Shown piece after piece: positions 15,794 to 64,000 of a DNA stretch of 64,000 bases. The first letter of the stretch is position 1; the number at the start of each line of letters is the position of its first letter. The stretch spans positions 50,760-114,759 of the forward strand of contig JAYTTD010000090.1 in the NCBI GenBank assembly GCA_043745235.1. The letters run 5' to 3'. The notes beneath the pieces are model-generated. The model saw only the letters and a list, made by a program, of their open reading frames with translations. It ran no database searches and had not been told where the DNA came from. The position numbers and the translations under genes are program-made. This DNA is from Nitrospira sp. GTDB taxonomy: Bacteria; Nitrospirota; Nitrospiria; Nitrospirales; Nitrospiraceae.

Positions 15794-15813
15794 GGATTCA
15801 CTAACTGATTGTC

Positions 15814-39414: not shown

Positions 39415-39782
39415 AGAACCGCTCCATGAGAAGGTGCACTGCAGTCTGTCAGGAAAATCCTGACCCTTCTACCAAAAGCGCCAAAGCCAGTCAACCCATT
39501 CCTGTTGCTTTTCAAGTGAGCGCGATCCATCGTCCCTCGTCCCACGTGATTCGATCTTTGATGCGTGAAGCGCGAGACAGACGAGAAAGGCACGACGCGG
39601 ACAGATTGGGCCCTCCTCGTTTTGCCCGTCTCTCTCGTCCCGCTAGTCTCGCATGTCTCACTGGCCAGAATAGTTTTCCGCAGCCTGTTAGAGCTCACGG
39701 TGGCTGGTCTCTGGTATGTGAAAAGAAAGAGAACCATCGATCGTGGCACAGAAAGCCGTCACTATTATGTGGTTCCGTTGTA

Positions 39783-40200
39783 GTGTCTTTGCTGTGGGAA
39801 CTACTGCTCAGTGGTGGGCTCTTGCTCCTCTGCAATGCCAACGCTGCTCTCACCGGTCGCATCCTTCTGGCAGGCTATGATCCTGAACTACCTGTCGTGC
39901 GAGATCTGGCGAAGACGTATGAGCGGCTGCATCCCAGCGCGGCAATCGATCTCGAATGGGATAGCCGGTGCGGACCATGCATCTGGTCAAAACTGGAGCA
40001 GCTCAATCGCAGTAACCGATCAACCAGATCCTGCGCCCAACACCACGCAAACCACCAACTGGTCTGATCTGGATGGTGCCATGGCTAGAGTGGAGATGAT
40101 TCCCTGCACGTCAGCAAACAATCTCACGGCCGGCTTTCAGAATTCCCTAGGGCTCCCGGAACGGATGGCAGTATCCGCGGTTTCGGTTCGTTCCGATTAA
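39783..40200 (+). pseudogene. degenerate relic of a PstS-like periplasmic binding protein gene
   Basis: Signal-like start followed by 'GRILLAGYDPELPVVRDLAKTYERLHPSAAIDLEWDS'. There is a frame change near 39962-39970, and later 'NWSDLDG' and 'LTAGF' fragments. It is far too short for an intact PBP. Confidence 0.3.
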
Positions 40201-41645: not shown

Positions 41646-41804
41646 GACAGCGCTCCAAACTGCTTATTGCGAATGGCTCGGCAGCAAGCGACGAAAGAGT
41701 CCGCACCGGGTATTGGGATAGCGGCCCCGTTTGGATGCCGCACAACCGAACCATCACAGCCCCTACCTGACAACCATCAACGCGACTGCATGGACTTCGT
41801 TGAC

Positions 41805-42659
41805 TCATCGGCTCCCACTGAGTTCTCTCCTCGCAAGTCCCCGCATCATCACCGGATCGGCGTACGCCACTTCGCTCAAGGCATCCATGAGATGCAGCCT
41901 TTTCGTTGCAACCAACTCCTTGGCCTTCAGATAGTTCTTCGCAGTAAGTCGTGCTACAGCCGGCTGACCGTTCACAATCTGACAAGCCAGAATTTCGCCG
42001 TTCACTTCAAGCGTGCCACCCTGCTCAACCAGCGTCTTGGCCTGCGCCGACGTAATGCCATGGAGTTGCGCGAACTCCTCCAGCCCTCCCGTTTCAACGA
42101 GTCGGCCATCCGGCATGATGCAGAGTCGCTTGAAATGCGGGGACCAATCCTTCCGGAAGTCGATGTATTTGATGTCTCCGCCCTTCGCGACAGCGCGATC
42201 CAATGTCCGGTAATCGAGTCCAAGATTCTTCTGCTCGAGTTTTGCCAGCAACTCTTCCGGCAACGTCCGGTGAAAGACCAGCGCCGCGACTTCAGCAAGC
42301 GGAATCCCCCGCGCCTGAGTCAATTGCTCCGCCTCGGCAAACTGCATGAGATCCAAGGTCCAGGTTTGCTTCGGAATCTCTCCGGTCGGATCGACTCGAC
42401 AGGCAAACAGCCCTCGCGTCAGCACCCCGCCGACCTGCGGATACACATAGACCCCGCCCTCGTTCAGCAGCCTGGTCATTGTCTCCAGCGGAACCTCATA
42501 GCTTTCCGACAAGACTTTCGCATGCGCGGGAAGATCTTCCCGGTGCGTCATCGCACAGGCCGTGACATTCCCTGGTGCATCGAACTCGGAATAATCCTCG
42601 ATCACGTTATAGAGGATCACCGACTTTGACTTACTCAACTTTTTCTTTATCTTAAACAT
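41805..42659 (-). CDS. hypothetical protein (284 aa), co-oriented partner of the SagB-like gene
   Basis: Balanced composition. The overlapping plus-strand ORF (41667..42629) is Arg-rich and looks like an antisense artefact. I recognise no family. Confidence 0.55.
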   Translation of the reverse strand: MFKIKKKLSKSKSVILYNVIEDYSEFDAPGNVTACAMTHREDLPAHAKVLSESYEVPLETMTRLLNEGGVYVYPQVGGVLTRGLFACRVDPTGEIPKQTWTLDLMQFAEAEQLTQARGIPLAEVAALVFHRTLPEELLAKLEQKNLGLDYRTLDRAVAKGGDIKYIDFRKDWSPHFKRLCIMPDGRLVETGGLEEFAQLHGITSAQAKTLVEQGGTLEVNGEILACQIVNGQPAVARLTAKNYLKAKELVATKRLHLMDALSEVAYADPVMMRGLARRELSGSR

Positions 42660-42705: not shown

Positions 42706-44469
42706 TCATCGATTCAGGTGATGATAGGGTGGTAGTGTCATCAATCTTCCATCCTCAACCGGTCCACCTACCGTAAAGTGGTAGAGCGACTGAAACGAAC
42801 GCGCCTTGATCCCCACGATCTCATGCACCGGATCGTCGAAGAAACATCCGATCCCGGTTGCCCGCACCCCCGCAGCTTCCGCTTCCAGGTACAGCACCTG
42901 CCCCAGCAACCCCGACTCCCAGAATAGACGTGGGTACCACCAAGCCCCTCCCTCCCGCAAGCGCCCTTCGAACTCGGCCATCATCCCCAGTGAGAAGGCA
43001 CTATCCCCAGCGATGTCTTGATGGCAACTCACTTGCACCGCGGCTTTTCGCGCATCGCCTTCAAGCAACCAGTAGAGAGGCAGATCCTCCGGACAACCTG
43101 GCGCCGGAGTCCAGATCAGCTCTGGATTCAGCGATTGCTGGATGAACGACAGCTTCAGTGGATCACGGACCAGAAAATAGAGCCCCGGCGTCAGACCCTC
43201 GACGCGGTGGACAAAGAGCATCACATGAATCGCCGGCTCGTAGGGCCAGACATCCCACGGCATCGGTCGATCCAATTGCGGCCGATCCGAGCGAGGCATC
43301 AGCAGCTGCATCATGTGGAAAAATGTCGTCGCGGAGATCGATGTCTTGCCATCGAACGATACCGCGCTCCGCCGCTGGCGAATGATCTGGCCGGCCAGCT
43401 GCCCCTCGTGAAACGTGAACGGTGAAACGTGAGAAGTCCGCGGGACCACGACCGAGACAAACGTTCGTTCAGAAGACGTCTTCCATGAAGCCTCTGCTGC
43501 TTCATCAATAATGTCCCAATGCACGCCATGTTCACCACTCAACCGATTGGCATTTCCATTCCACTTTCCTGCAGCGAGATCCTTGACCACCGCTGGATCA
43601 AGGAAAAGCGGGATATCGACCACATCCTTACGTTGCACGCCTAACGTTTCACCTTTCACATTTCCAGAAGGCCAAATCACCGCCAGACAGTCCGGATGTT
43701 CCGGCTCAACTTCTGTAAAGTCATCCACCCGATTGGTCCCCAACAATAGGGCAACCGTGTTCTGTTCCACACCATCCAATAGCGCCATGTTCCAGCCCAG
43801 CGTGGCGGCCGCGATCCGCGCCGAACCAATCGCATGACCGACATCGTGATTGCAGTAGCGAAACGCCCGCTCGCCATATTTCCAGGCCTCACGCCAATGC
43901 ACCGAAGTCAGCCCAAACAGAAAGGCGCCAGGCGGAAACAGTGCCAGCAGCAGAGCGACCTGTTCGGCAGGAAACTCTGCCCGAAACTCCAGACCATGCT
44001 CCTTCGGCGCGTAATGATAGAGCCCGGGATTCAGATCGAGGCCATCGATCTGCGGAAATACCGCATAGCCTTCCGTCGGATGCAGATTGCCGGACGACGG
44101 ATTACTCCGTAACGCCCATTCCATCTCCCCGCCTTTTTTCCACGCGGATAAGGCAAGCGCAAATTCGAAAAATCTGGAAAGGGAACGCATGTTCACAGGC
44201 TGACAAGGAACCGCCCCGAGCTGATAGATCGCGTCATAGGCCGGCGACAGCGGCTCCTCATCCGGCCTCAGCAACGGAAGCGGAATCAGTTGTGAACCTT
44301 CGAATCGCCGAAACGGATCAGGCTGATTCGCCCAATCCAGATACCCAAGCGCGCGAGCATAGCGATTGAAGTAATGCTTCGTCTGAACGTGATAGCGGAT
44401 GACCCGATCAATGGGATCGGTCGAAACAGGCTCGGCGGATGTAGCGGGAACTGGCTTCTCGGTGCTCAT
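42706..44469 (-). CDS. SagB/ThcOx-type double nitroreductase-fold dehydrogenase
   Basis: 587 aa. 'YHVQTKHYFNRYA...LDWANQPDPFR', 'RSNPSSGNLHP', 'YCNHDVGHAIG', 'RRSAVSF' and 'GIGCFFD' are typical of this family. Confidence 0.75.
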   Translation of the reverse strand: MSTEKPVPATSAEPVSTDPIDRVIRYHVQTKHYFNRYARALGYLDWANQPDPFRRFEGSQLIPLPLLRPDEEPLSPAYDAIYQLGAVPCQPVNMRSLSRFFEFALALSAWKKGGEMEWALRSNPSSGNLHPTEGYAVFPQIDGLDLNPGLYHYAPKEHGLEFRAEFPAEQVALLLALFPPGAFLFGLTSVHWREAWKYGERAFRYCNHDVGHAIGSARIAAATLGWNMALLDGVEQNTVALLLGTNRVDDFTEVEPEHPDCLAVIWPSGNVKGETLGVQRKDVVDIPLFLDPAVVKDLAAGKWNGNANRLSGEHGVHWDIIDEAAEASWKTSSERTFVSVVVPRTSHVSPFTFHEGQLAGQIIRQRRSAVSFDGKTSISATTFFHMMQLLMPRSDRPQLDRPMPWDVWPYEPAIHVMLFVHRVEGLTPGLYFLVRDPLKLSFIQQSLNPELIWTPAPGCPEDLPLYWLLEGDARKAAVQVSCHQDIAGDSAFSLGMMAEFEGRLREGGAWWYPRLFWESGLLGQVLYLEAEAAGVRATGIGCFFDDPVHEIVGIKARSFQSLYHFTVGGPVEDGRLMTLPPYHHLNR

Positions 44470-44661: not shown

Positions 44662-45531
44662 ATGAAATCTGGCGAGGCTAAAGGACCTGAATTTATCCGC
44701 TTCTTCCGACCAATCCTTAAATTACTTCTCGAATCCGGTGGAACCAGCACGCCTGCAGAGATTGTTGATCGTTCAATTGAAATTGCAAAAGTTTCCGAAT
44801 CAGAGCAGGAAGCCGTCAATAAGAACGGACAGTCACGGATTAAGAACCAAGTTCACTGGGCACGCCAGTTTCTAGTCTGGGATGACTATCTGGATTCTTC
44901 TCGACGAGGCGTATGGAGTCTTACCGACAAGGGCAAAAGTGTCGAAGTAAGCAGATTAGACCCACTTAAAGTATACAAGAATGTTCAAAAAATCCGTTCC
45001 CGAGCGAAGCAGTCTCAAGAGCTGAAAGCTCCTTTGGTGGACGAAGCTCCTCCTTATGACCTAGCGAGTCAAGGCCACAGGGCTCGGCTGATCGAGCTAA
45101 TTAGATCTATATCACCAGATGGGTTTGAGCGCCTAAGTCAGCGGCTCTTACGGGAATCAGGCTTTCAACACGTTATCGTTACTGGAAGAGCAGGCGACGG
45201 CGGTATAGACGGAATTGGGACGCTGCAAGTTAATCCCTTCGTGAGCTTCAACGTCCTATTTCAGTGCAAACGATATCAAGGCGCTGTAACACCATCCCAT
45301 GTTCGCGATTTTCGCGGTGCCATGATGGGACGTGCAGATAAGGGTATAATTTTAACCACGGGAACGTTCACACTAGAAGCCAAGAAGGAAGCACGGCGTG
45401 ACGGAGTTCCCCCAATTGAGCTTGTTGATGGAGATGTTCTTGTTGACATGTTTGAGCGTCTTGAGTTGGGCCTCACACCAAAGCGAACCTACGATATTGA
45501 TGAAAAGTTTTTCGATGAGTATAAGAAATGA
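44662..45531 (+). CDS. mrr: Mrr-like type IV restriction endonuclease (Mrr_N winged helix + Mrr_cat)
   Basis: 'FERLSQRLLRESGFQHVIVTGRAGDGGIDGIG...FQCKRY...VRDFRGAM...KGIILTTGTFT'. Confidence 0.88.
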   Translation: MKSGEAKGPEFIRFFRPILKLLLESGGTSTPAEIVDRSIEIAKVSESEQEAVNKNGQSRIKNQVHWARQFLVWDDYLDSSRRGVWSLTDKGKSVEVSRLDPLKVYKNVQKIRSRAKQSQELKAPLVDEAPPYDLASQGHRARLIELIRSISPDGFERLSQRLLRESGFQHVIVTGRAGDGGIDGIGTLQVNPFVSFNVLFQCKRYQGAVTPSHVRDFRGAMMGRADKGIILTTGTFTLEAKKEARRDGVPPIELVDGDVLVDMFERLELGLTPKRTYDIDEKFFDEYKK

Positions 45532-45706
45532 GCGCCAAAAATTGGACTGGGAAAGGTGTCAAGAACGATTTCAGGTGATCGCAGCTATCTCCATCGTACA
45601 GCATCATTCCTCTTATTGACCGCTCTTTCCCTCCCCGCGTATCCTGCCATCGCTGCTGCGACACGTGACAACGAAACAGCGTGAGCCGTTAGGCAAAGGA
45701 GATTGC

Positions 45707-46588
45707 ATGAGTCAGGTCCAGAAGGGTATCCTCGCTCCTGTTCCACCACTCGCCCGTTATCTTTTGTTCACTATCGCCGCAGGAAAGAATCCCGCCGGTT
45801 CTTTGCGCAATCTGTGCAAGTTGGCCGACGGTGAGAAGACGGTCGTGGGATTGGGCCAATCACTCGTGCGGGCCCTTGGTCGTGAAGTCCCAGGACTTGA
45901 AGTATTCCCCAACTATGCCGCTCCTGGCTTCAACGTGCCTTCGACATCGGCTGTGGTATGGTGCTGGCTTCGAGGAAACGATCGCGGCGAACTCGTCCAT
46001 CGCGCACGCGCGATTGTCCAAAGCGTCGCCCCTGTCCTTCAATTGCAGCACACGATAGATGGCTTCCGGTATAAATCAGGTTTCGACCTTTCCGGCTATG
46101 AGGACGGGACTGAAAATCCGAAGGGCGCAGCCGCGATCAAAGCCGCCGTGGTCGCCGGACAGAGAACCGGCCTCGACGGAGGGAGTTTCGTCGCGGTTCA
46201 GCAATGGGTCCATAACCTGGATACATTGGAAGCCATGACGACCAAAGAACAGGACCGCACGATCGGGCGCCGGAAACGCGACAATAAAGAACTCGGCAAG
46301 GCACCGGCTTCCGCTCACGTCAAGCGGACCGCGCAGGAAAGTTTCGATCCCACCGCGTTCATTGTGAGACGGTCCATGCCATGGGCCGACGCGCATCAGG
46401 CAGGCTTAGTGTTCGTGGCGTTCGGAAACTCCTTCGACGCGTTCAACGCGCTTCTACGCAGGATGGTCGGCGCCGAAGACGGCATCGTAGACTCGTTGTT
46501 TACGTTCACACGCCCTATTTCCGGGAGCTATTTTTGGTGCCCGCCGATGAAAAACGGGTATCTCGACTTACGGGCAGTCGGCTTATGA
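45707..46588 (+). CDS. Dyp-type peroxidase
   Basis: GxxDG motif 'GYEDGTENP', 'RRSMPW' and 'LVFVAF'. ATG at 45707 with an AAGGAG RBS. Confidence 0.88.
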   Translation: MSQVQKGILAPVPPLARYLLFTIAAGKNPAGSLRNLCKLADGEKTVVGLGQSLVRALGREVPGLEVFPNYAAPGFNVPSTSAVVWCWLRGNDRGELVHRARAIVQSVAPVLQLQHTIDGFRYKSGFDLSGYEDGTENPKGAAAIKAAVVAGQRTGLDGGSFVAVQQWVHNLDTLEAMTTKEQDRTIGRRKRDNKELGKAPASAHVKRTAQESFDPTAFIVRRSMPWADAHQAGLVFVAFGNSFDAFNALLRRMVGAEDGIVDSLFTFTRPISGSYFWCPPMKNGYLDLRAVGL

Positions 46589-50849: not shown

Positions 50850-51947
50850 TTGCCACTGATCTGGGCTGCGATTTCCGCACATGGGTTTGGACATGCCGCA
50901 CAGGTCGTGCCGGTCCTCAATGCCCTCGGGCGGCTCGTTCCCGACCTGCGCGTCATCTTACGAACCACCGTCCCCGCCTCGTTCTTCAACGATCGCCTCG
51001 TGATTCCCTGGGAACTCAGTGCCGTGCAACAAGATGTCGGCTGTATCCAGGATGGCCCTCTGACGATCGATGTGGAGGCGACCTGGCGCGAGCACGAGCG
51101 ATTTCACGCGACATGGACCGACCGGATACAGCATGAAGTGACGGCAATGAAGGCTGCACGGCCGGATGTGGTCCTTGCCGACACGCCCTACCTGGCCCTC
51201 GCGGCTGGAAAAGCCGCGGAGATTCCCACCGTCGCCTTGGCGAGCTTCACCTGGGACTTGATTCTCTCTGAGTACGTCGCTCCGCCACCCGTCGACAGAT
51301 CGGCGCTCCTTCATGCAATTCGTCAGAGCTACGCGCAAGCTGATGTGGCCCTGCGCATGATCCCTGCCCCAAAGATCGATATCATTCAGCGTATCGTCGA
51401 TATTGGCCCCATCGCCGAACCGGCCGCTTCAGCTCGCGACCAGCTCGCCACAGTGCTAACTCTGGCACCGGAGGAACGGACTGTGCTCGTGGGATTTGGC
51501 GGTATTCCGCTGACCTCACTCCCATTTGCCGATCTAGAGTTACTCGCAGGTTATCGGTTTCTATTCGATGGACCCATTCCACCAGGCAGCACCAAATTCG
51601 TATCGACGCACTCCCTGCCCTTCTCATTCAAAACATTGATGGCCTCTGTCGATGTCATCATGACCAAACCCGGTTACGGCACCATTGTTGAGGCAGTCGC
51701 GCTTCAACAGCCAATCGTGTACGTCCGCCGATACAATTTTGCCGATGAACTGCCGCTCGTCGACTATCTGCACCGCTACGGACGCGGCGTTGAATTGTCG
51801 ATCGATGACTTCATGGAAGGCCGCTGGGAACCAACGTTGAGACAGGTGCTTGCAGTGCCGCAACCAGCCTTCACGCCTCCGGCATTGACTGGCGCTCACG
51901 ATGCGGCCACCATTTTCGCCTCCTATCTCACCAAGTCAGGACCCTGA
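50850..51947 (+). CDS. GT-B-fold glycosyltransferase-like protein (MurG/UGT-like)
   Basis: TTG start. N-terminal 'AISAHGFGHAAQVVPVLNAL' and C-terminal 'MTKPGYGTIVEAVALQQPIVYV' resemble GT1/GT28-type donors. The call is by recollection. Confidence 0.5.
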   Translation: MPLIWAAISAHGFGHAAQVVPVLNALGRLVPDLRVILRTTVPASFFNDRLVIPWELSAVQQDVGCIQDGPLTIDVEATWREHERFHATWTDRIQHEVTAMKAARPDVVLADTPYLALAAGKAAEIPTVALASFTWDLILSEYVAPPPVDRSALLHAIRQSYAQADVALRMIPAPKIDIIQRIVDIGPIAEPAASARDQLATVLTLAPEERTVLVGFGGIPLTSLPFADLELLAGYRFLFDGPIPPGSTKFVSTHSLPFSFKTLMASVDVIMTKPGYGTIVEAVALQQPIVYVRRYNFADELPLVDYLHRYGRGVELSIDDFMEGRWEPTLRQVLAVPQPAFTPPALTGAHDAATIFASYLTKSGP

Positions 51948-51949
51948 CC

Positions 51950-52759
51950 ATGCATCTGCTTGGACTAGTGATTCAATACGTCTCCAACGGTTGCAAACGA
52001 ATCGGTGGGGCGGTCTTTCGTATCACTCAATTCCTAGACGCTCTATTACCGGCACTCTTCTCCCCCACTCAACTTTCCAAACTCATTCACGTGCACTACG
52101 AAGACCGCTATCGTGATGCTTCTGGACGCTATTCCGCGGAGGCCTACGGAACGGAGCTTTTAGAGTGGGAGGAAGACGTGCTCGCGCGCCACAAGATCGC
52201 GTCTGGCACAGCCGTGGTGCTTGGAGCCGGAGTGGGTCGTGAATCCATCGAGCTCGCCAGACGGGGACTGCATGTGATTGGACTTGATATCAGTCGAGAC
52301 GCCCTCCATCTGGCCGCTCTCACCGCGCGGGGAAAGTCTATACCCGTCACCTTTCTCCAGGCGAGCTTCTACGATATCCCGACCCTCCCTGCCCGCATCG
52401 ATTACATCTTCCTCTCCGGCATCATGTACAGCTCCATCCCTGGACGGCAGGCGCGGCAAGCCTGGCTCAAAGGCCTGCGCACCCATCTGAAACCTGGCGG
52501 ACTCGCCGTCCTGAACTATTACATTGACCGAACAACGGAAACTCAGACAGATCGGCGTGCCCGCACGTTCAATTCCTGGCTGGCCAGCCTGCCAGGAGCG
52601 AATCCCTTGTATCAACCGGGCGACCTCGTGTCTCAAGAGCACTTTCTCCACGCCTTCTTGAGCGAAGAAGAACTTCGGTCTGAGCTGACCGAAGCAGGAG
52701 CGACGATCGTTCAACTCAACTGGGACAAGCAGTTCACCGTGATCGCATGGCCTTATTAA
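51950..52759 (+). CDS. class I SAM-dependent methyltransferase
   Basis: Motif I 'AVVLGAGVGRESIELARRG' followed by 'VIGLDIS'. It starts 2 nt after the glycosyltransferase-like gene. Confidence 0.8.
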   Translation: MHLLGLVIQYVSNGCKRIGGAVFRITQFLDALLPALFSPTQLSKLIHVHYEDRYRDASGRYSAEAYGTELLEWEEDVLARHKIASGTAVVLGAGVGRESIELARRGLHVIGLDISRDALHLAALTARGKSIPVTFLQASFYDIPTLPARIDYIFLSGIMYSSIPGRQARQAWLKGLRTHLKPGGLAVLNYYIDRTTETQTDRRARTFNSWLASLPGANPLYQPGDLVSQEHFLHAFLSEEELRSELTEAGATIVQLNWDKQFTVIAWPY

Positions 52760-52848
52760 ACCGTCTTGGGCGGGTCATCGAGAGCTGATCGAACTCGGCG
52801 AGAAATACCGCTGGAAGCGGCTTGGAGGATTTGCTATTCTCCTGCTCT

Positions 52849-53160
52849 ATGAACACCACCTCCATCTACGCCAGACATCCTGATTATGTACAGCGCGACG
52901 TAGCGGGAGAATGTATCCTCGTTCCCATCCGCCGATCCCTCGCAGAAGCGAACAGCATTTACGTCTTGAACGAAACGGGGGCGGCCCTATGGAATCGTCT
53001 TGACGGCACACATCGGCTGCAAGACATCACGGCGGCCTTCTGCATAGAGTACGACGTCACAACAGATCAATTGCACCGGGATGTTGAGACCCTCCTGGCA
53101 GACCTACTTTCGATTCATGCCATTGAAGAGGTTGCCGTTGCCGATGCTCCCACGGGATAA
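52849..53160 (+). CDS. PqqD-family peptide chaperone (RRE-type leader-binding protein)
   Basis: 'VAGECILVPI......IYVLNETGAALWNRLDGTHRLQDITAAFCIEYDVTTDQLHRDVETLLADL' is the standard PqqD pattern. An alternative TTG start lies at 52822. Confidence 0.8.
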   Translation: MNTTSIYARHPDYVQRDVAGECILVPIRRSLAEANSIYVLNETGAALWNRLDGTHRLQDITAAFCIEYDVTTDQLHRDVETLLADLLSIHAIEEVAVADAPTG

Positions 53161-54058
53161 ACTCAATCACCTCCCAGAGCGGTTTCCCGTCGCCTGCCAG
53201 TGGGAAATCACCTGCCGCTGCAATCTGCATTGCGTGATGTGTTACACGGATTGTTTCAATCGACCTGACTTCATCCGCCAGGAACTCGCCACCTCAGACA
53301 TCCTCCGCATCATGGATGAGATGGCCAACGCCGGCACGCTCGAACTCTGCTTGACCGGCGGCGAACCAATGATACGGCCTGATTTTTTTCAGCTGTACGA
53401 GCACGCCATCCGCCGCGGTTTTCTTGTGACGGTGTTCACCAATGGCACATTGATCACGGAGGCTGCCGCGGACCATTTCGCGACGCTACGTCCCCATCAA
53501 ATCGAGATCAGCCTGCACGGACTGACAAAAGAGATCTTTGAGCGCATCACCCAAGGCACAGGGTCCTATCACCGCTGTCTTGATGGTATCAAGCTGCTGC
53601 TCGATCGACAGGTTCCCCTCACACTCAAGAGCACGGCGATGACGCTCAACCAGCATGAAATTCTTGCCATCAAACAGTACGTCGCCTCGCTTGGATCGGT
53701 CCGCTATAAACTCGGGGAAGAGATGCGGCCAGAACTCGATGGCGGAGCTGGCCCGTTTCACTACGCGCTCTCCGAAGGAGACTTGAGAATCCTCAATCAA
53801 CAAGACGCCGATCTTTGGAAAGAATCCTGCCAGCAACCACGCACGGATGATCTCCCCCCCTGCCGAAGCGGGATGCAACGATTCCACATCGACGCCTATG
53901 GGAAACTGCAACTCTGCTCAGGCAATCGACGGCAGAGCTACGATCTTCTGAACGGGTCGTTCCGGGAAGGCTTCTTCGAGGCCATGCCGACATTCGCGTG
54001 CGAGTGGAAAGCGCCCGTGGCGTCAGAACCGATGCGCCCGACGGTGTACCATGCCTGA
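53144..54058 (+). CDS. radical SAM enzyme with partial (twitch-like) SPASM domain, paralog 1
   Basis: CX3CX2C 'CNLHCVMC', 'LTGGEP' and 'CRSGMQRFHIDAYGKLQLC' (CX12GX4C), but no CX2CX5C block. It overlaps the PqqD stop. Confidence 0.88.
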   Translation: MLPRDKLNHLPERFPVACQWEITCRCNLHCVMCYTDCFNRPDFIRQELATSDILRIMDEMANAGTLELCLTGGEPMIRPDFFQLYEHAIRRGFLVTVFTNGTLITEAAADHFATLRPHQIEISLHGLTKEIFERITQGTGSYHRCLDGIKLLLDRQVPLTLKSTAMTLNQHEILAIKQYVASLGSVRYKLGEEMRPELDGGAGPFHYALSEGDLRILNQQDADLWKESCQQPRTDDLPPCRSGMQRFHIDAYGKLQLCSGNRRQSYDLLNGSFREGFFEAMPTFACEWKAPVASEPMRPTVYHA

Positions 54059-55181
54059 AGCCAGAGCCATTCCCACAATGCAGTATGGCGAGTTCAGCCG
54101 CATGGCGTATGAACGTGCGGTGCAACAAGACCGCATCATCAAAGCACAACTCGAGCTCACCTATCGCTGTAATTTGCACTGCCGCCATTGCTACACCGAT
54201 CCCTACAACGGCAAGGAGTTCTTCCCCCGCGAATTGAGCATAGCGGAGATTTACCGCCTCCTCGGCGAGATGCGCGACATGGGTGTGATGTGGCTCAATC
54301 TCACCGGTGGCGACATCTTCATGCATCCTGATTTCTTCGAGATCTATGAGGCGGCCAATCGGCAGGGCTTCCTGCTCCAGCTCTATACCAACGGCACGCT
54401 CTTTACCCGCGCGATCATCGAAAGATTAAAGACCATGCCCCCGTTTACCATCGATATCTCGTGCCACTCGGTGAACGAAGAACGGTTCGACTGGTTCACG
54501 CAAGTAGCAGGGTCCTATCGCGCCTTCATGCGCGGGATGATGTGGCTGCGGGAGAGTGGATTGCCCTTCACGTTGAAAACCAAGTTGATGGATTGGAACA
54601 AAGACGAGATCGACGACATCCGGACCTTCACCGAATCGTTTGGCCAACAGTTCGGCTATACCACGTCACTCTCACCACGACTGAACGGAGATTGCACGTC
54701 GCTCGCCTATCGAATTGACCCGCAAGATTTGAAACGCCTGGAACAGACCGATGTCCTCAGAGAGGCCGAAGATCTTTGCGCCGCACAAGAGGAGATTGCC
54801 ACACCTGACAGCGACCGCCTCTACCGGTGCGGATGCGGAACCAACTCCATTCACATCAATGCCTGGGGCGAGCTCGGCACCTGCACATTGCAGTATGAAC
54901 ATCGAGTCTCGCTTCGGACACATTCCTTGCAAGATGCGGTCGCACAGGTGTTTGGAGCCGTCCGATCGATGCGGTATCAGAGCGACAGTCCTTGCCGCTC
55001 CTGTGACATTCACCGATTCTGCGAGAAGAAACCGACCGATGCCCGATGGGAACAAGGTGAGGCCGAAGCCCCCATCCCCTACGATTGTGATATTGCGTTA
55101 GTTCGTGCGGAAACCACCGTTCGCCAGCCCCTAATTCACCCGTTGAGGAAAGGGGCAGTGGCCGCGGTGAAAACACAATAA
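54051..55181 (+). CDS. radical SAM/SPASM-domain enzyme, paralog 2
   Basis: 'CNLHCRHC', 'LTGGD', 'CGCGTNSIHINAWGELGTC' and 'CRSCDIHRFC' (CX2CX5C). It overlaps the stop of paralog 1 by 8 nt. Confidence 0.9.
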   Translation: MPEARAIPTMQYGEFSRMAYERAVQQDRIIKAQLELTYRCNLHCRHCYTDPYNGKEFFPRELSIAEIYRLLGEMRDMGVMWLNLTGGDIFMHPDFFEIYEAANRQGFLLQLYTNGTLFTRAIIERLKTMPPFTIDISCHSVNEERFDWFTQVAGSYRAFMRGMMWLRESGLPFTLKTKLMDWNKDEIDDIRTFTESFGQQFGYTTSLSPRLNGDCTSLAYRIDPQDLKRLEQTDVLREAEDLCAAQEEIATPDSDRLYRCGCGTNSIHINAWGELGTCTLQYEHRVSLRTHSLQDAVAQVFGAVRSMRYQSDSPCRSCDIHRFCEKKPTDARWEQGEAEAPIPYDCDIALVRAETTVRQPLIHPLRKGAVAAVKTQ

Positions 55182-55218
55182 CATCGTTGTTCTCAATATG
55201 GTTTAGGAGAAACCAGCT

Positions 55219-55473
55219 ATGACCGAGAAAAAACCCTACAGCCCTCCGCAACTGTACGAAGTGACTTTGGACCAGGAGCAGGCGATTCTGACCGCCTGCA
55301 GTTTGACGACAATGTCCGTCGCTGCCGGTGTCGGCACGAACGGCTGTCGTGTAAGCGGCCGTTGTGAAACCGCCATGTGCGGTGGCGGCTCACCGGGAGG
55401 ATGCAAGCGATCATCCCTCGGGATGGTGTTCTGTGGCGTGACCTGCCACGACAGCGGCATTCGGGCATCATAG
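55219..55473 (+). CDS. candidate RiPP precursor peptide (84 aa, 7 Cys)
   Basis: AGGAGA RBS 8 nt before the ATG. Leader-like 'MTEKKPYSPPQLYEVTLDQEQ' contains YxxPxL. Cys/Gly-rich C-terminal part 'C..C.....C....CGGGSPGGC.........C...C' ends in '...GIRAS'. It is embedded between the maturase genes. Confidence 0.6.
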   Translation: MTEKKPYSPPQLYEVTLDQEQAILTACSLTTMSVAAGVGTNGCRVSGRCETAMCGGGSPGGCKRSSLGMVFCGVTCHDSGIRAS

Positions 55474-55481
55474 GTTTTTCT

Positions 55482-56387
55482 ATGCTCATTGCCCTGCAAC
55501 TTGGTGGATCTGTCTTTCACCTCCGAGAACCAAAAGATTATCCCCTTCTGGCATGGCCGATCCGTCCCTTTGATGTGTTCCTCGCACCGCCGGATGTACC
55601 GCCGGATTTCCAGATAGAGGTGACGGTCGTCCCGCACTTGCCTGAATTGGCAACCGGGCTACTCCGATTCGATGCAGGCCAAGGATATTGGAAACTCTTC
55701 GAGTCTGATGCCGGCTTTGTGATTGAGAGTCTCAGTCCATTACTCCTTCAGCCGCGTGCTCGCGCCCAGGTCTCTCACGACTACCGCACAATCCGCGCAT
55801 GGGTTCTGCCAGAACTGCATTTAGGGCAAGTCGGTTGGAGTCCGATGCACCTGTTCAATCCCATCGTGGAAATTTGCCTCCTCTCTCGCCTCGCCTTGGA
55901 TGGAGGATTACTCCTTCATGCCGCAGGCCTCACAACCCAGGAAGAGGGCTACATCTTTACCGGTGACTCAGGAGCCGGCAAATCTACCATCGCACAGTTT
56001 TTCGCGGAACGAGGCGCGCTGGTGCTCAGCGATGAACGACTGATTATCCGCAAGAGCGCCGATAACTTCATACTCTACGGCACACCATGGGTCGGATCCG
56101 GGAACTATGCCCACAATGCGCAGGCCCCGCTCACACAGCTCTATTGCATCAGTCATGGGACGGAGCAGCATACGATCTCTCTCTTGTCCCCTCGCGCCGT
56201 CTCGCAAGAACTCTTGCGCCAGTGCTTCCTTCCGCTCTGGAGTCGCGACGCGCTCGAAGCGACGCTGGCAACCGTTACGGATCTCGTACAGCAGATTCAC
56301 TGCCGGGCGCTGGCAGCGCTCAAATCGCCGGATGTCGTAGATGTTGTGCTGACTCAACGCCACCTATCCCCGATAGGTTCACGATGA
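55482..56387 (+). CDS. HPr-kinase-related (HprK C-terminal-like) P-loop kinase
   Basis: 'LLLHAAGLTTQEEGYIFTGDSGAGKSTIAQFFAERGALVLSDERLII' matches the HprK_C core. It starts 9 nt after the precursor stop. Confidence 0.75.
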   Translation: MLIALQLGGSVFHLREPKDYPLLAWPIRPFDVFLAPPDVPPDFQIEVTVVPHLPELATGLLRFDAGQGYWKLFESDAGFVIESLSPLLLQPRARAQVSHDYRTIRAWVLPELHLGQVGWSPMHLFNPIVEICLLSRLALDGGLLLHAAGLTTQEEGYIFTGDSGAGKSTIAQFFAERGALVLSDERLIIRKSADNFILYGTPWVGSGNYAHNAQAPLTQLYCISHGTEQHTISLLSPRAVSQELLRQCFLPLWSRDALEATLATVTDLVQQIHCRALAALKSPDVVDVVLTQRHLSPIGSR

Positions 56388-57442
56388 AAACAATCGCCGC
56401 TGCCGACTTTCTTGATGCTCTGTCAGCGAAGGCTGCGCAGGCACGCAGGCCTGAGGGAGTCACGTTCGAATTGACGTATGGCTGCAACCTGCGTTGCGTC
56501 CATTGTTACAACCCGACGCATCGTGCCTTGCCGCATGAACTCACGACCTCAGAGATTTGCTCGCTATTAAACCAAATCGCCGACCTTGGAGTGCTCACTG
56601 TAACCTTCACAGGAGGCGAACCGAGCGTGCGCCCAGACATCGAACACATTCTTCGGCATGCACGCCAACAGGGTTTGGTTATACAACTCTTGACCAATGC
56701 CACGCGCATCACGCCTTCGTTCGTCACAGTGCTCAGAGAAATCGGTGTGGCGCAGATGAACGTCTCTATCTACGGAGCAACGGAAGCGACCTATGAACGA
56801 ATGACCGAGGTTGCCGGCTCCTATCGGCAGTTTCGGCAAGGCTTGAACTGCCTCGCTGATGGTCAGTTACCGGTGACCGTCCGAATGCCGGTCACCACCA
56901 TCAACTACGAGGAGATTCACGCCTGTCGGGAATTGACAGAATCCCTGCATATGAAGTTCCAATACTGCCTGGAAATCATGACGTCTATTACAGGCGACCC
57001 GACGCCACTCCAATATCGGCTTGACCCTGAGCGAAAAGTCCGAATCGATCAAGAGCTACTCTCATACCGCACGATGGACCAGCCCGAAGCATCCTGTTCG
57101 ACTCAACAGCCTTTCATCGAATGTGCCTGCGGTCAGAGTCGATTTGCGATTACTCCCTATGGCGAAATGAATCTCTGCACCGCCTTCCCTATTCCGCGCT
57201 ATGATCTCCGCACCGGCACGGTGAAAGAAGGTTGGGAGATCCTTAAACAGACGGTCGATCAGGCTCATCCCAACCATCGTTACGAATGTCCGACCTGTGA
57301 GGTACGGCCTCACTGCCGCCAGGGTCGGAGCGACTCCTGGCTTGAAACCGGGGACATGAGTTCGTGCCTTCCACACTATAAAGAATGGGCTGAATTGGAG
57401 CATCGCACCTATGCCCTCCTCGACCCTCGACAACCTCGCTGA
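56384..57442 (+). CDS. radical SAM/SPASM-domain enzyme, paralog 3
   Basis: 'CNLRCVHC', 'FTGGEP', 'CACGQSRFAITPYGEMNLC' and 'CPTCEVRPHC'. ATGA overlap with the kinase stop. Confidence 0.9.
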   Translation: MKTIAAADFLDALSAKAAQARRPEGVTFELTYGCNLRCVHCYNPTHRALPHELTTSEICSLLNQIADLGVLTVTFTGGEPSVRPDIEHILRHARQQGLVIQLLTNATRITPSFVTVLREIGVAQMNVSIYGATEATYERMTEVAGSYRQFRQGLNCLADGQLPVTVRMPVTTINYEEIHACRELTESLHMKFQYCLEIMTSITGDPTPLQYRLDPERKVRIDQELLSYRTMDQPEASCSTQQPFIECACGQSRFAITPYGEMNLCTAFPIPRYDLRTGTVKEGWEILKQTVDQAHPNHRYECPTCEVRPHCRQGRSDSWLETGDMSSCLPHYKEWAELEHRTYALLDPRQPR

Positions 57443-58376
57443 CGCGTACACCCAAGTCAGCCTGATCAACAAACGGCTGCTCGATGAGTGTGAGATCGTA
57501 GGCCTGGCATTCCAGCGACAGGGCATCGAGTGTATTCTCCTGAAAGGAGCTGATCTGCTCTCACGCCTCTACGGAGTGCGTGGGATGAGGCCCCTCTCCG
57601 ATGTGGATCTGCTGGTCCATGAACAAGACCTTCCTGCCATTCATCGGCTGCTGATTGAAACCGGCTTTGTACAACAGATCGACGGCAACCCGGCCTATGT
57701 CTCACCTCAATCCACACTCTCTCTGGATCTGATCTCGGGACTTTGGTATCTCGACGAAGAGGGACTTGCCGCGCTGTGGGGACGGGCTCGGACTCGACCG
57801 CTCGGCCAGCTGACGGTCAAACAACTGGCCGCCGACGACCTGCTGCTCTATTTGATCGCCTACTCGGTCGTCCACCGAGGGCACCTTTGCCCTTCCTTTT
57901 TCACCGACCTCCGGCTGCTGATCGAGAAGGAACCGCTCGACTGGCCCACGCTTGTCGAGAATGCGGGCCGGCATTACCTGAAGATTCCTCTCTACCACGG
58001 CCTTCGCCAGCTGGGATTATCGAGCCCAGCCATAGGAATTCCTTCTGCCGTCATCCAACAGCTCGCGCCATCGACCATGGCTGAACGGACACTGGAGTTT
58101 CTTTTTCGGCGTTTGGTGACGACCCAGCCCCTCCCCGAACTTGGACACTTCTTATTGTGGATCACGCAACCGCCAGGGCGCAGGCTGGCCTGGCTTCGTC
58201 GCACCCTCTTCCCATCATTGCTCTTCCTCACCTATCGCTATGGAAATGAAAGTACGAAGCGACCCCGCCGCATCAAAATCACCAGATGGTGGCAATTGGC
58301 ACGAGCGGGAAACATCTTGATTGCCCGCGTGCTGATCCGGCTCGTCATTGACCAGCCAACAAGGGCAACCTCGTGA
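57411..58376 (+). CDS. NTP_transf_5-type (uncharacterised) nucleotidyltransferase family protein
   Basis: 'ILLKGADLLSRLYGVRGMRPLSDVDLLVHEQDLPAIHRLLIETGF' is the signature region of this family. It overlaps the rSAM stop by 32 nt. Confidence 0.75.
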   Translation: MPSSTLDNLADAYTQVSLINKRLLDECEIVGLAFQRQGIECILLKGADLLSRLYGVRGMRPLSDVDLLVHEQDLPAIHRLLIETGFVQQIDGNPAYVSPQSTLSLDLISGLWYLDEEGLAALWGRARTRPLGQLTVKQLAADDLLLYLIAYSVVHRGHLCPSFFTDLRLLIEKEPLDWPTLVENAGRHYLKIPLYHGLRQLGLSSPAIGIPSAVIQQLAPSTMAERTLEFLFRRLVTTQPLPELGHFLLWITQPPGRRLAWLRRTLFPSLLFLTYRYGNESTKRPRRIKITRWWQLARAGNILIARVLIRLVIDQPTRATS

Positions 58377-59191
58377 TTCACCTCGTACCTTCTCTCAGTT
58401 TGGATGGTCGTTTTGCTGCGCAGGATTTACCAGACGCGCTCCAACTGCCTCTTCTGAACAGTATGGTCGTGCCTCGTGTCGTCTCATCGAGCATGACGCC
58501 GACGATTCAAGCAGGCGACGAACTTGAAATCGGTCCTCCGACCTCCCTCACCCTAGGCGCGATCGTGGTATTCCGGCTCGACACCATGCTCGTCTGCCAC
58601 CGCATCACTGCCATTCATTCACAAGGCATGCTCTCGACGAGAGGCGACGCCACGCAGGGCGCCTGCGAGATCGTTCAGCCAGGCTCTGTGATCGGAGTGG
58701 TCAGGGGAGTGCTACGCGAGGGCTCTCACGTGTCTCTTGGGCAAAGCCCGCACAGAGCATCAGCCGAGGCACCACCGACCAGCATCAAATGTCGCGTTCA
58801 GACTGTGATCCTCCGGTCAGCCACCGGGAGTATTCGTATCCTTGCGGGAGTCACACTCTTTCAGCATATGCTGACCCTATTGCTCCGATGGACAGCCACG
58901 ATCGATGTCCTCACTCCGGCACCACTCCAATCCCTCCCCTCCCACGCCAAGGTCGCCTCGTTCACATTCCGAATGTTTCCACACATTACCGGACTTCTCG
59001 CTGTTTCCAGCGGGCAGAAATCGACACGGTATGTCCTCCGGCTGGGACCGTGGCGACTGGCCCAATACGACCCGGAGACAAAGTCCCTCCTGCTCCGCCA
59101 ATCCCTCTGGGGTGCCGGCCTGGAGCCGTTCGTTCGACAAATACTCGTAACTACTCAGGTAGATAGGCTGAAGGCTCATGGAATAGGATAA
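58373..59191 (+). CDS. S24/S26 (signal-peptidase-I-like) serine peptidase domain + unknown C-terminal domain
   Basis: 'VVSSSMTPTIQAGDELEI', 'GAIVVFRLD', 'CHRITAI' and 'STRGDAT'. GTGA overlap with the upstream gene. The C-terminal ~140 aa are unassigned. Confidence 0.6.
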   Translation: MIHLVPSLSLDGRFAAQDLPDALQLPLLNSMVVPRVVSSSMTPTIQAGDELEIGPPTSLTLGAIVVFRLDTMLVCHRITAIHSQGMLSTRGDATQGACEIVQPGSVIGVVRGVLREGSHVSLGQSPHRASAEAPPTSIKCRVQTVILRSATGSIRILAGVTLFQHMLTLLLRWTATIDVLTPAPLQSLPSHAKVASFTFRMFPHITGLLAVSSGQKSTRYVLRLGPWRLAQYDPETKSLLLRQSLWGAGLEPFVRQILVTTQVDRLKAHGIG

Positions 59192-59252: not shown

Positions 59253-59395
59253 TTGCGCTTCGGCCTTCAGTCTTCAGCCTAAATACCTGAGTAGTTGCCA
59301 ACAAACACACATCCTTTTGCCCGTTCTGTCCGTAGGATGCTATAGTCGTGGCGGACATGAGATGATGCTAGCTGTTCCTCATAACTCGCTCGCGT

Positions 59396-61756: not shown

Positions 61757-62536
61757 CTAGGCAGTCTGTACACTCACGCTCCAATCTTTCCCGCGTAAAG
61801 CCACCGCTCCCTGCCATCCGGCACCACACCCGAGCCACCGAATCGTCCACCCTGGCTGAAGAGCCGCACCGTCGGACAGAGATACGTGACATGTCGCTGC
61901 ATCGACCGGGGCGAGGATCTCGCACTCGTGAAGCGACAATATGCCAACCCCTTGGCCTTTCAGCGCCGCCTCCTTGGCCACCCAGTAACGGTAGAACTGC
62001 TGCACCTGGTCAAACCCGGAATGGCCCAGTATCTCCTGGTATTCGGAGGGAGCATAAAACCGTTTGGCAAGCTTGACGACTTCAACCTTGTCCCGCATCT
62101 GTTCAAGATCGACCCCAACATCCTGCCTCCGCGCCACCGCAATGAGCATGCGTCCGTGAGAATGGGACAGATTGAAGCGGAGCACATGCGGGCGCCCCTG
62201 TTGATCCAGCAAGGCGGGTTTGCCTGTTGAGCCGGCTTGGAACCGCAGCGCAGCCGGATCAAGTTCAGTGTAGCGTGCGAGCACAGCCCGGAGACCGCCA
62301 TGTGCGAGGGTATATCGGGTCTGATCTTCCTGACGAATGAACCGGACAGCCCGCGCTCGCTCCTCCTCGCTGAGCCAGGCGTGGCAGCATTCCAGGGCCA
62401 CGGCGCTTCCATCGAGAGAGAAGCCCCAAACATGCACGGCTCGGTCGTCCAGCGTGAGCAGCACAGGATGATCGATCGTCGAGAGTCCTTCAAGGGATGG
62501 GAAGGTGACGATTGGCCCAAGCGAGTGAAGATTCAC
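61757..62536 (-). CDS. Sfp-type 4'-phosphopantetheinyl transferase
   Basis: 'FNLSHSHG', 'GVDLEQM' and 'WVAKEAALKGQG'. Confidence 0.88.
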   Translation of the reverse strand: MNLHSLGPIVTFPSLEGLSTIDHPVLLTLDDRAVHVWGFSLDGSAVALECCHAWLSEEERARAVRFIRQEDQTRYTLAHGGLRAVLARYTELDPAALRFQAGSTGKPALLDQQGRPHVLRFNLSHSHGRMLIAVARRQDVGVDLEQMRDKVEVVKLAKRFYAPSEYQEILGHSGFDQVQQFYRYWVAKEAALKGQGVGILSLHECEILAPVDAATCHVSLSDGAALQPGWTIRWLGCGAGWQGAVALRGKDWSVSVQTA

Positions 62537-62707
62537 CAGAATTCCTATGCAGGGTCCATCATAAACTGAGGCCTATCGTACCGGCTCGACAGGTGAAAAG
62601 AAAACCAATTGAAAAATCCCCCTCCCCACGGTAAGCTCCTGACGAGTCGACTCACTGAAGCCACTGATTCACGCTATCCTGTCGGAGCTTCAGGCACAAC
62701 CTAGAAC

Positions 62708-62797
62708 GGAGAGGTGCGAGAGTGGCCGAATCGGGCAGTCTCGAAAACTGCTGTCCTGGCAACGGGACCGTGGGTTCGATCCCCACCCTCTCCGCCA
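62708..62797 (+). tRNA. tRNA-Ser (anticodon CGA)
   Basis: Acceptor GGAGAGG/CCTCTCC, anticodon arm GCAGT-CTCGAAA-ACTGC, long variable arm, T-arm GTGGG-TTCGATC-CCCAC, encoded CCA. Confidence 0.92.
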
Positions 62798-62947
62798 AAT
62801 TTCAACCGGTTGTGTATCAAAGTTCGTGTCGATTGTACCTAAAGCCTCCTCTAGTGTCTCCGGAAGTGTAGCAATTTTCTGCTGAATGCAGGCATCCAGA
62901 CGGTTCGCTGTCTCCTTCACGTCCTCTTCGCTGGCAAGGGACACACT

Positions 62948-64000
62948 ATGAAATCTCACGAAACAGAACCCTCTCAAGTGCTGCGCGATAAAACTGACAA
63001 GAGCCTAGAGGCTGAGCGGGGCAAAACCGACGAATACCTTGAGCAAAAAAGTAAGACGGTCGAAGAAGAGGCCAGTGAGACAATCCGCTTGAGTCGGCTT
63101 GCCGCCGATAAAAACCGTGAAAGTCAACGTGCGGAGGTGGACCTCGACAAGAAACATCAACTTGACGTTACTGGTACTCAAACGACACAGTTGGACGACA
63201 AGATTTTAACTCAGGAGCGCGAACGGTCCGACGAAGCCAAACGTGTCGAACGGCAAAAAGAAGATCGTGCTCGGACCCGGGAGCGCTTTCAAAACCGATT
63301 GATCACCGAAGCTCGCCTTGAAATCGAGCGTAAGGAAACAGACAATAATCTTCTCGAAGAACGAGTTGGCAGCGACTTAGAGTCCGAACACAACTCTACC
63401 CTGCTGTCAGGCGAAACAGTTTCCCACGACATGACGAAATCGGCACTTGTGACGAGAGATCAGTTTCTCGCGATTGTAAGTCACGACTTGCAAAATTCCC
63501 TCGTAGCTATTTCGATAGGTGCTCATTTGATGCGGAGTAATCTTGATCGTGACACAGTTGATACAGTTAGTCTTCTCCGAAACCTCGGAATAATAGAGCA
63601 AAGCGTCGCGGGCATGGACCGCATGATCAGTGACCTACTTGATGTAGAGCGAATGTCACATGACAAGCTAATTCTTAAGCCTGAACGGGTCGACCTTCGC
63701 ACTATTTTACAAGAATGTGTGAATCTATTTGCGCCTATCGTTTCAAGTAAGTCATTTTCAATGACCATTTACCCATGCCCTGAACCGATATTCGCTGACC
63801 TCGATCATGACAGAATTCTTCAGGTGCTATCTAATTTGATAGGGAACTCACTGAAATTCACCCCCAAGGGAGGCGCCATTGAGCTTTCTGCACGAAAACA
63901 GGAGACTCAAGTCGAAATTTCGGTAACCGACAATGGACCTGGAATTTCCAAACAGACACAGGCAAGAATTTTCGAAAAGTTCTCGCAGCTGAAAATGAAC
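62948..64000 (+). CDS. sensor histidine kinase, 3' end outside the window
   Basis: Absent from the ORF track because no stop is reached. The frame is open from the ATG at 62948. It has a long coiled-coil N-terminus, H-box 'FLAIVSHDLQNSL', N-box 'LSNLIGNSLKFTPKGG' and G1 'DNGPGI'. Confidence 0.85.
   Translation, partial: MKSHETEPSQVLRDKTDKSLEAERGKTDEYLEQKSKTVEEEASETIRLSRLAADKNRESQRAEVDLDKKHQLDVTGTQTTQLDDKILTQERERSDEAKRVERQKEDRARTRERFQNRLITEARLEIERKETDNNLLEERVGSDLESEHNSTLLSGETVSHDMTKSALVTRDQFLAIVSHDLQNSLVAISIGAHLMRSNLDRDTVDTVSLLRNLGIIEQSVAGMDRMISDLLDVERMSHDKLILKPERVDLRTILQECVNLFAPIVSSKSFSMTIYPCPEPIFADLDHDRILQVLSNLIGNSLKFTPKGGAIELSARKQETQVEISVTDNGPGISKQTQARIFEKFSQLKMN

Follow-up and report, generated by a model that had tools for sequence, protein, structure and literature searches.

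The 64,000-nt stretch of contig JAYTTD010000090.1 (Nitrospira sp., assembly GCA_043745235.1) analysed here is referred to as the window, and all coordinates are those of the window unless another locus is named. Its plus strand carries a cassette of eight overlapping or abutting open reading frames (ORFs) at 52822-59191. The original prediction, made from the sequence alone, had described them as a chained operon for a ribosomally synthesised and post-translationally modified peptide (RiPP), consisting of genes for a PqqD-family protein, three paralogous radical S-adenosylmethionine (rSAM) enzymes, a Cys-rich precursor, an HprK-like kinase, an NTP_transf_5 protein and an S24/S26-type peptidase. 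Domain scans, profile searches and conserved synteny agree with this set of parts, and all ORFs and junctions of the proposed chain were found in the sequence: (i) the rSAM1 gene (ATG 53144) starts inside the PqqD gene (stop 53160; 17-nt overlap), (ii) the rSAM2 gene (ATG 54051) overlaps the rSAM1 gene (stop 54058) by 8 nt, (iii) the precursor gene (ATG 55219) follows the rSAM2 stop (55181) after a 37-nt gap containing AGGAGA, (iv) the kinase gene (ATG 55482) is separated from the precursor stop (55473) by 8 nt, (v) kinase and rSAM3 genes meet in an ATGA at 56384, (vi) the NTP_transf_5 gene (ATG 57411) overlaps the rSAM3 gene (stop 57442) by 32 nt (57411-57442), and (vii) NTP_transf_5 and peptidase genes meet in a GTGA at 58373. 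A promoter and terminator scan yielded no signal above background within the operon; one promoter-like site is located downstream at 59317-59346, in front of a gene for an extracytoplasmic function (ECF) sigma factor.

Scanning one genome per GTDB species for related loci yielded a total of 61. The full cassette is present in 24 Nitrospiraceae loci and in one metagenome-assembled genome of the Elusimicrobia (locus L027), with the shared order PqqD, rSAM1, rSAM2, precursor(s), kinase, rSAM3, NTP_transf_5, peptidase. Since this order is identical in 25 independent loci, the arrangement is not a matter of chance. Homologues from the databases are annotated as belonging to Nitrospira, Nitrospiraceae or Nitrospirota. 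Simpler sets of genes for a PqqD protein, one rSAM enzyme and the kinase occur in Acidobacteriota (L029), Aminicenantes (L030, L032), Myxococcota (L033, L035) and Anaerolineae (L037). The small ORFs beside them encode two or three Cys and a YxxPx(L/V/I) leader. In these four groups, every candidate precursor adjoining a kinase-plus-rSAM pair ends in Ser. Locus L065 contains a divergent precursor gene flanked by kinase and rSAM genes in another order, and S26-like genes adjoin the kinase gene in L034 and L038, too; the contigs of L066 and L067 are too short for context.

The precursor gene (55219-55473, plus strand) encodes a peptide of 84 amino acids and is preceded by the above-mentioned AGGAGA, read directly from the sequence as a Shine-Dalgarno motif (55205-55210, plus strand). 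A small Cys-containing ORF had been expected to co-vary with the enzymes, and indeed it is kept at the same place in 25/25 homologous loci. Substitutions relative to seven homologues fall mostly on the third codon position (e.g., 12/5/33 at positions 1/2/3), and this bias together with the ribosome-binding site (RBS) identifies the ORF as a real coding gene. Its product displays the leader KKPYSPPQLYEV...EQAIL (pattern KKPYxxPxL...EQAIL), the C-terminus ...CHDSGIRAS and seven Cys residues, three of which are invariant. Alignment of 28 precursors reveals P10, Q21-A22-I23-L24, C27, C43, C62, K63 and the C-terminal S84 as invariant, and Y7, L17, S28, S79, G80 and R82 as near-invariant. The C-terminal Ser is present in 28/28 locus-derived precursors, while S28, forming part of a near-conserved (T/S)25-A26-C27-S28 stretch, is kept in at least 90 % of precursors. 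Tandem pairs of precursor genes, one coding for a short three-Cys form and the other for a longer form, are found in four loci (L004, at 7550-7985 of that locus; L016; L018; L026).

Among 112 database clusters of precursor homologues, a leader motif of the [Y/W]xxPx[L/V/I] type, in the form YxxPx[LIVM], is present in 111, QAIL in all 112 and the C-terminal Ser in 109; at least two of the three clusters devoid of the latter (P0340, P0351) look frameshifted. A profile search of 1.84 billion representatives widened the precursor family to 195 clusters (50 % identity). Out of the 150 that are listed 138 are short, with 118 of these short members ending in Ser, 110 containing exactly three Cys and 130 possessing the leader motif. 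The long repeat proteins P0359, P0391, P0399, P0450 and P0461 from the same search were rejected as spurious family members, and a single-sequence PDB search with the precursor returned chance matches only. The [Y/W]xxPx[L/V/I] motif is the one recognised by the discrete RiPP recognition elements (RREs) of lasso peptides and of linear polyphosphorylated peptides (LPP; PMC13381572). Thus, a small precursor gene co-varies with modifying enzymes and encodes a leader with a predicted RRE-binding motif, as is generally expected of a RiPP.

Domain assignments are based on Pfam and NCBIfam scans with Pfam gathering scores and curated NCBIfam cutoffs as thresholds. The first gene of the cassette (52822-53160, plus strand; likely start ATG 52849) encodes a discrete PqqD-family RRE (PF05402, E 6e-17), the nearest NCBIfam and PDB relatives of which are lasso B1 chaperones, including TbiB1 and the entries 9x8z/9x90, with every match being weak.

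The three rSAM proteins, all encoded on the plus strand, share 29-37 % sequence identity with each other and each contain the CX3CX2C signature: rSAM1 (53144-54058; PF04055, E 1e-22) at C26/C30/C33, rSAM2 (54051-55181; PF04055, E 2.5e-23) at C40/C44/C47 and rSAM3 (56384-57442; PF04055, E 7e-25) at C34/C38/C41. Since this signature already starts at residues 26-40, a fused N-terminal RRE is impossible in any of them. The prediction of three radical-SAM/SPASM paralogs applies with respect to paralogy and, given their full sets of SPASM cysteines, to rSAM2 (conserved auxiliary C243, C260, C262, C278, C315, C318, C324 and C346) and rSAM3 (C238, C247, C249, C265, C302, C305, C311 and C328), but not to rSAM1. 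The latter is Twitch-like with three or four auxiliary cysteines (conserved C240, C258 and C286, plus C145) and lacks the CX2CX5CX3C block. The nearest solved rSAM relatives by sequence are the peptide crosslinkers PqqE, SkfB and CteB (SkfB and PqqE for rSAM2, PqqE and SkfB for rSAM3). The NCBIfam families matched (NirJ, AhbD, MftC, StsB, PqqE, ScmE/F and GeoRSP_rSAM) all score far under their cutoffs; rSAM3 aligns with GeoRSP_rSAM over its full length at a sub-threshold score.

The product of 55482-56387 (plus strand) is an HprK-like P-loop kinase of the ScmC family. Single-sequence matches of this protein are weak (Hpr_kinase_C, 19 bits and below the gathering score; HprK_rel_B, 38.5 bits), and PF27840 (ScmC) is the precomputed Pfam family of its database homologues. 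Invariant in the kinase alignment are H146, the P-loop GxSGxGKST (161-169) and D184-E185-R186. The profile matches HprK/P (1jb1), with P-loop and DDR region aligned. The AlphaFold2 (AF2) model of the kinase (pLDDT 91, pTM 0.88) retrieves phosphoenolpyruvate carboxykinase (PEPCK) and HprK/P as top Foldseek matches. These two proteins have a common fold, and affiliation of the kinase with this HprK/PEPCK fold is confirmed at the level of the predicted structure. The penultimate gene (57411-58376, plus strand) encodes an enzyme of the nucleotidyltransferase fold (NTP_transf_5; PF14907, E 1e-27, above the gathering score) with a conserved D64-x-D66 motif.

The last gene (58373-59191, plus strand) encodes a homologue of archaeal/ER-type signal peptidase I (SpI) and putative leader peptidase. 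Taken alone, its sequence is only weakly matched (PF00717, 21.6 versus 23.3 bits; TIGR02228, sigpep_I_arch, 40.4 versus 51.85 bits); a scan of the window protein together with 14 orthologues gave a TIGR02228 match for 15/15. Comparison of the ortholog profile with human SEC11A (7p2p) aligns SSSMTP with SGSMEP, CHRI with VHRV and RGDA with KGDN, such that S40 (in SSSM), H76 (in CHR) and D92 (in GD), all conserved in the orthologues, coincide with the catalytic Ser/His/Asp of SEC11A. A single-sequence PDB search with the peptidase found nothing. The protein also carries a C-terminal extension of ~150 amino acids (58733-59191, residues ~120-272) that is conserved in Nitrospirota, displays motifs such as SLPSH and RLGPWRLAQYDP, and matches no known family or structure.

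Directly established are the genes present, their catalytic motifs, and the fact that the cassette is conserved and that the precursor co-varies with it, while all chemical steps, their order, the site of cleavage and the fate of the product are inferred. The operon is predicted, with a probability of roughly 70 %, to produce a Cys-crosslinked and Ser-phosphorylated RiPP from which the SpI-like peptidase removes the leader. The 84-amino-acid product of 55219-55473 would serve as substrate, its YxxPxL leader being bound by the stand-alone PqqD-type RRE, which would present the peptide to the three RRE-less rSAM enzymes. These could then crosslink the core via the three invariant Cys residues, most probably by thioether bonds of the sactionine or ranthionine type. 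The HprK-like kinase would phosphorylate the side chain of a Ser residue, most probably that of the invariant Ser at the C-terminus, the site used in the lasso peptides paeninodin and pseudomycoidin. The resulting phosphate may be decorated by the NTP_transf_5 protein in a manner similar to PsmN, and the peptide may in addition be methylated by a methyltransferase encoded immediately upstream. Finally, by analogy with LppS of the LPP pathway, the SpI-like protease would cut off the leader in cooperation with the RRE. A scheme with one rSAM enzyme per Cys was dropped, since three-Cys precursors also occur beside a single rSAM gene.

Across all loci, kinase and precursor are the fastest-diverging genes of the cassette, a pattern that fits a kinase co-evolving with a core that diversifies. 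The locus of L028 is a mosaic in comparison to the window: flanks and PqqD gene are 83-97 % identical (80-97 % for the flanks by a second account), and identities amount to 62 % for rSAM2, 43 % for the precursor, 42 % for the kinase and 58 % for rSAM3. Such a mosaic pattern points to diversifying selection or to an exchange of the central module.

For the core of the cassette (RRE, kinase, NTP transferase, S26 peptidase), a precedent exists in the LPP (Popov et al., Nat Commun 2026, PMC13381572). In this system, which was described as restricted to Bacillota, the precursors contain the sequence YxxPxVLxHQxIxFETxxS, the kinase LppK polyphosphorylates Ser3 of a core starting with AQS (preceded by T at position -1), and the peptidase LppS (S29/H68/D93) was experimentally shown to remove the leader only when the latter is presented by the RRE LppB; LppN displayed no activity in the heterologous host (PMC13381572). 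Shared with the present cassette are the discrete RRE, the HprK-like kinase, an uncharacterised NTP transferase, an archaeal-type SpI as leader peptidase (predicted here), the RRE-binding YxxPx(L/V) leader motif and the lack of a macrolactam cyclase. Differences pertain to (i) the rSAM enzymes and conserved core Cys, both missing in LPP (the term 'Radical SAM' is absent from text and supplements of PMC13381572) as compared to three rSAM genes here, (ii) an MsbA-like exporter, which belongs to the LPP core set but is not present here, (iii) the precursor sequence, of which only YxxPxL is shared, the remainder here reading xxVxLxxEQAIL(S/T)xCS, (iv) the Bacillota-only distribution, and (v) phosphorylation of the core Ser3. 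New relative to LPP is the joining of its module to three rSAM enzymes. Accordingly, the earlier statement that no characterised RiPP class combines these genes stands insofar as no characterised product was found in the searchable literature, but not with respect to the core shared with LPP.

A second precedent is provided by the lasso peptides paeninodin and pseudomycoidin, the C-terminal Ser of which is phosphorylated by HprK-like kinases, with the NTP transferase PsmN attaching hexose to this Ser phosphate (PMC6993621). PsmN and LppN appear to be the same kind of enzyme as the NTP_transf_5 protein of the cassette, to which they are likened by description rather than by sequence comparison. 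Tailoring by an HprK-like kinase and an NTP transferase, a discrete B1-type RRE and a precursor ending in Ser are common to both systems, and a lasso cluster of this sort fills the same chromosomal slot in a Nitrospira relative (L050). However, the cassette contains three rSAM genes and an SpI-like peptidase gene instead of a lasso cyclase and a B2 cysteine protease. Neither the Asn-synthase-like macrolactam cyclase (C) nor the transglutaminase-like B2 protease has a Pfam match in the cassette, while the same scan detects both in L050. The predicted absence of lasso cyclase, YcaO and LanM is borne out for the cassette.

Sactipeptides and ranthipeptides (SkfB, CteB, PapB) resemble the present system in their SPASM/Twitch rSAM enzymes and in a Cys-containing core behind an RRE-bound leader. 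Their maturases, however, usually act singly and have an RRE fused to the N-terminus, contrasting with the three RRE-less paralogs and the discrete RRE found here. Among the characterised members, none was found to be paired with a kinase, NTP transferase or SpI peptidase. The StsB, PapB, AlbA and SkfB models are matched by the rSAM proteins only far under cutoff.

The combination of a PqqD protein, one or two rSAM/SPASM enzymes and an HprK-like protein is also known from the SynChlorMet (SCM; ScmC/D/E/F), GeoRSP and HprK-related A/B systems. To our knowledge, these systems contain no NTP_transf_5 gene or SpI peptidase, and no precursor has been identified for SCM. The resemblance to GeoRSP and HPr-rel-A noted in the original prediction turned out to be distant, since all curated cutoffs are widely missed: those for GeoRSP (TIGR04302/04303) with 18.6 versus 100 for geo_PqqD_fam and 57-80 (best 79.8) versus 400 for GeoRSP_rSAM, those for SynChlorMet with 21.9 versus 125 for ScmC, 24.1 versus 100 for ScmD and 55-92 versus 400 for ScmE/F, and those for the HprK-related kinases A and B (TIGR04352, TIGR04355) with 26.3 and 38.5 versus 200 bits. 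The kinase falls within the broader Pfam family ScmC (PF27840), the only SynChlorMet family matched. These systems are the nearest analogues among those defined in databases only, and none of them was found in the searchable literature. Judged by its genes, the cassette appears as a recognition, tailoring and processing module of the LPP/lasso type supplemented with three rSAM enzymes and a Cys-containing core but devoid of an exporter, and is best regarded as a hybrid of two kinds of RiPP, those crosslinked by rSAM enzymes and the phosphorylated ones of the LPP/lasso type.

Several observations weigh against the proposed route to a crosslinked and phosphorylated peptide. The chemistry of the rSAM enzymes is not readable from their sequences, the top families being generic SPASM families, and relatives with a single rSAM enzyme also possess three-Cys precursors. 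The AF2 model of the peptidase, calculated from a 15-sequence alignment, is unusable (pLDDT 45). The role of the NTP_transf_5 protein is uncertain because of the inactivity of LppN in the heterologous host. Neither 51950-59191 nor the set of ORFs with 150 or more amino acids at 34-51 kb includes a transporter gene, which agrees with the predicted lack of an exporter within the operon and extends it to the 20 kb upstream. Moreover, the phosphorylation site of LPP is Ser3 rather than the C-terminus, and the near-conserved (T/S)-A-C-S stretch resembles the T|AQS junction of LPP.

The last point leads to the alternative of an LPP-like kinase reaction, in which the SpI-like peptidase would cut after T/S in QAIL(T/S)|ACS, S28 (then Ser3 of the core) would be phosphorylated or polyphosphorylated, and the terminal Ser would be kept for another reason. 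The LPP core AQS with phosphorylated S3 and T at -1 is paralleled by (T/S)25-A26-C27-S28 with its prevalent S28, and the module of RRE, kinase, NTP transferase and SpI fits LPP rather than lasso clusters. On the other hand, S28 is replaced by E in L027 and, across the wider family, by E, T, A, V, N or H, and it is absent from the kinase-adjoining precursors of L029, L030 and L032, whereas the C-terminal Ser is retained in all precursors in which S28 is replaced or absent. Preference is given to the C-terminal Ser as phosphorylation site because it stays with the kinase across phyla, while S28 gives way to other residues in L027 and in numerous wider-family precursors; phosphorylation of S28 is therefore viewed as unlikely.

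Somewhat less probable still is the formation of an intracellular cofactor or metal-binding molecule in the style of pyrroloquinoline quinone (PQQ) or mycofactocin, retaining only a small conserved part of the precursor such as the C-terminal CK...DSGxRxS. Such a product would agree with the missing exporter, with the fixed chromosomal position and apparently vertical inheritance across the Nitrospiraceae, and with the invariance of the extreme C-terminus and the three Cys residues, between which the segments vary in length and sequence. Furthermore, the pairing of PqqD with rSAM-SPASM follows the logic of PQQ and mycofactocin, and the top NCBIfam/PDB matches include MftC and PqqE. The latter matches are, however, generic and far under cutoff, and core and kinase are the parts of the cassette that diverge fastest. 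Together with the two different precursors of some genomes and the core length of 61-84 amino acids with 3-7 Cys, such divergence is typical of diversifying bioactive RiPPs and not of cofactors.

A chance neighbourhood of haem- or cofactor-type rSAM enzymes (NirJ/AhbD-like), unrelated genes and a spurious small ORF is suggested only by the top NCBIfam names of the rSAM proteins (NirJ2, NirJ, AhbC, AhbD; 90-120 bits versus cutoffs of 500-650) and is effectively refuted by the conservation data, i.e., an RBS-preceded, third-position-biased ORF whose protein sequence is conserved across 25 loci and 112 clusters, and a trio of precursor, kinase and rSAM genes that recurs in other phyla in different gene orders.

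Within the preferred interpretation as a crosslinked and phosphorylated RiPP, one may tentatively go further, at somewhat less than even odds, and regard the cassette as defining a separate RiPP class spanning several phyla. Peptides of this class would have a leader of the form YxxPxL...EQA(I/V)LSxC, a core with three Cys and a Ser at the C-terminus, and would combine rSAM crosslinking and phosphorylation of the terminal Ser, possibly also glycosylation, on one peptide. The Nitrospira form would have expanded to three rSAM paralogs and recruited the SpI-like leader peptidase. If true, the scaffold would lie outside the described RiPP classes and its function might possibly relate to the physiology of nitrifiers (metal handling, signalling) rather than being purely antibiotic.

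Immediately upstream of the PqqD gene, a gene for a class I SAM methyltransferase (51950-52759, plus strand; Methyltransf_25/11/12 matches) represents a probable accessory tailoring gene. It is present in 16/19 Nitrospiraceae loci covering this position (absent in L010, L011 and L028), is lacking in L050, and probably belongs to the cassette. In L027, two methyltransferase copies are located inside the cassette, between the NTP_transf_5 and peptidase genes. The L027 cassette continues, at 10836-15948 of that locus, with the methyltransferase pair, an S24-like peptidase (PF00717; 40.6 bits, exceeding the gathering score), a glycosyltransferase of the PMT_2 family and a Wza-like protein for polysaccharide export. 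This neighbourhood echoes the polysaccharide-locus context reported for LPP clusters.

Synteny in the Nitrospiraceae extends beyond the cassette, including genes for tetratricopeptide repeat (TPR) proteins, a porin-like ORF and a glycosyltransferase as well as the genes directly downstream, i.e., for the ECF sigma/anti-sigma pair, TadA and a 4'-phosphopantetheinyl transferase. Since the whole neighbourhood is syntenic, synteny of the flanks is uninformative on function. The limits of the cassette can be deduced from the more distantly related L050 (Nitrospira sp. M_DeepCast_65m_m2_155), in which a lasso biosynthetic gene cluster (4540-11748 of that locus) is situated between glycosyltransferase and ECF sigma factor genes and encodes a B2 protease (Transglut_core3), a cyclase (Asn_synthase), a kinase-like ORF, a TPR protein and an NTP_transf_5 protein. 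As L050 thus keeps the flanks with a different occupant, the cassette ranges from 51950 (or 52822) to 59191. The glycosyltransferase gene (50850-51947) and the downstream ECF sigma/anti-sigma pair, both kept in L050 without the cassette, are not demonstrable members and were set down as conserved context. Cassette and lasso cluster look like alternative occupants of one site with a common kinase/NTP-transferase logic.

About 8 kb upstream of the cassette, the minus strand encodes a 586-amino-acid protein (42706-44466) that contains a peptide dehydrogenase domain of the SagB family (TIGR03605; 89.4 bits versus a cutoff of 78.4) and may belong to a second RiPP-like locus; two neighbouring ORFs (39318-40064 and 41667-42626) are without family match. 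A tRNA-Ser(cga) gene was predicted by ARAGORN at 62708-62797, but not reported by the Rfam scan at gathering threshold. The G+C content drops to 0.518 in the last 2 kb (62000-64000), and the low-G+C end past the tRNA gene may mark the edge of an integrated element. Genes for a restriction endonuclease of the Mrr type, a peroxidase of the DyP type and a 4'-phosphopantetheinyl transferase resembling HetI (162 bits, below cutoff) in the surroundings (44662-46588 and 61757-62536) have no evident link to the cassette.

Phosphorylated RiPPs are rare, and the LPP module, described in 2026, was hitherto reported from Bacillota only. Finding an LPP-type module joined to rSAM chemistry in Nitrospirota extends its reach and predicts a hybrid scaffold that would be both crosslinked and phosphorylated. 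Relatives of simpler make-up occur in Acidobacteriota, Aminicenantes, Myxococcota, Chloroflexota and Elusimicrobia. We know of no identified substrate for ScmC/GeoRSP-type systems, and the precursor family, which spans several phyla and comprises at least 195 clusters (50 % identity), could help to find that of these distantly related systems present in databases only. The search of the literature found no specialised peptide products from Nitrospira. The cassette is carried by Nitrospira of the nitrite-oxidising or comammox type, a group with a central role in the nitrogen cycle and in the treatment of wastewater.

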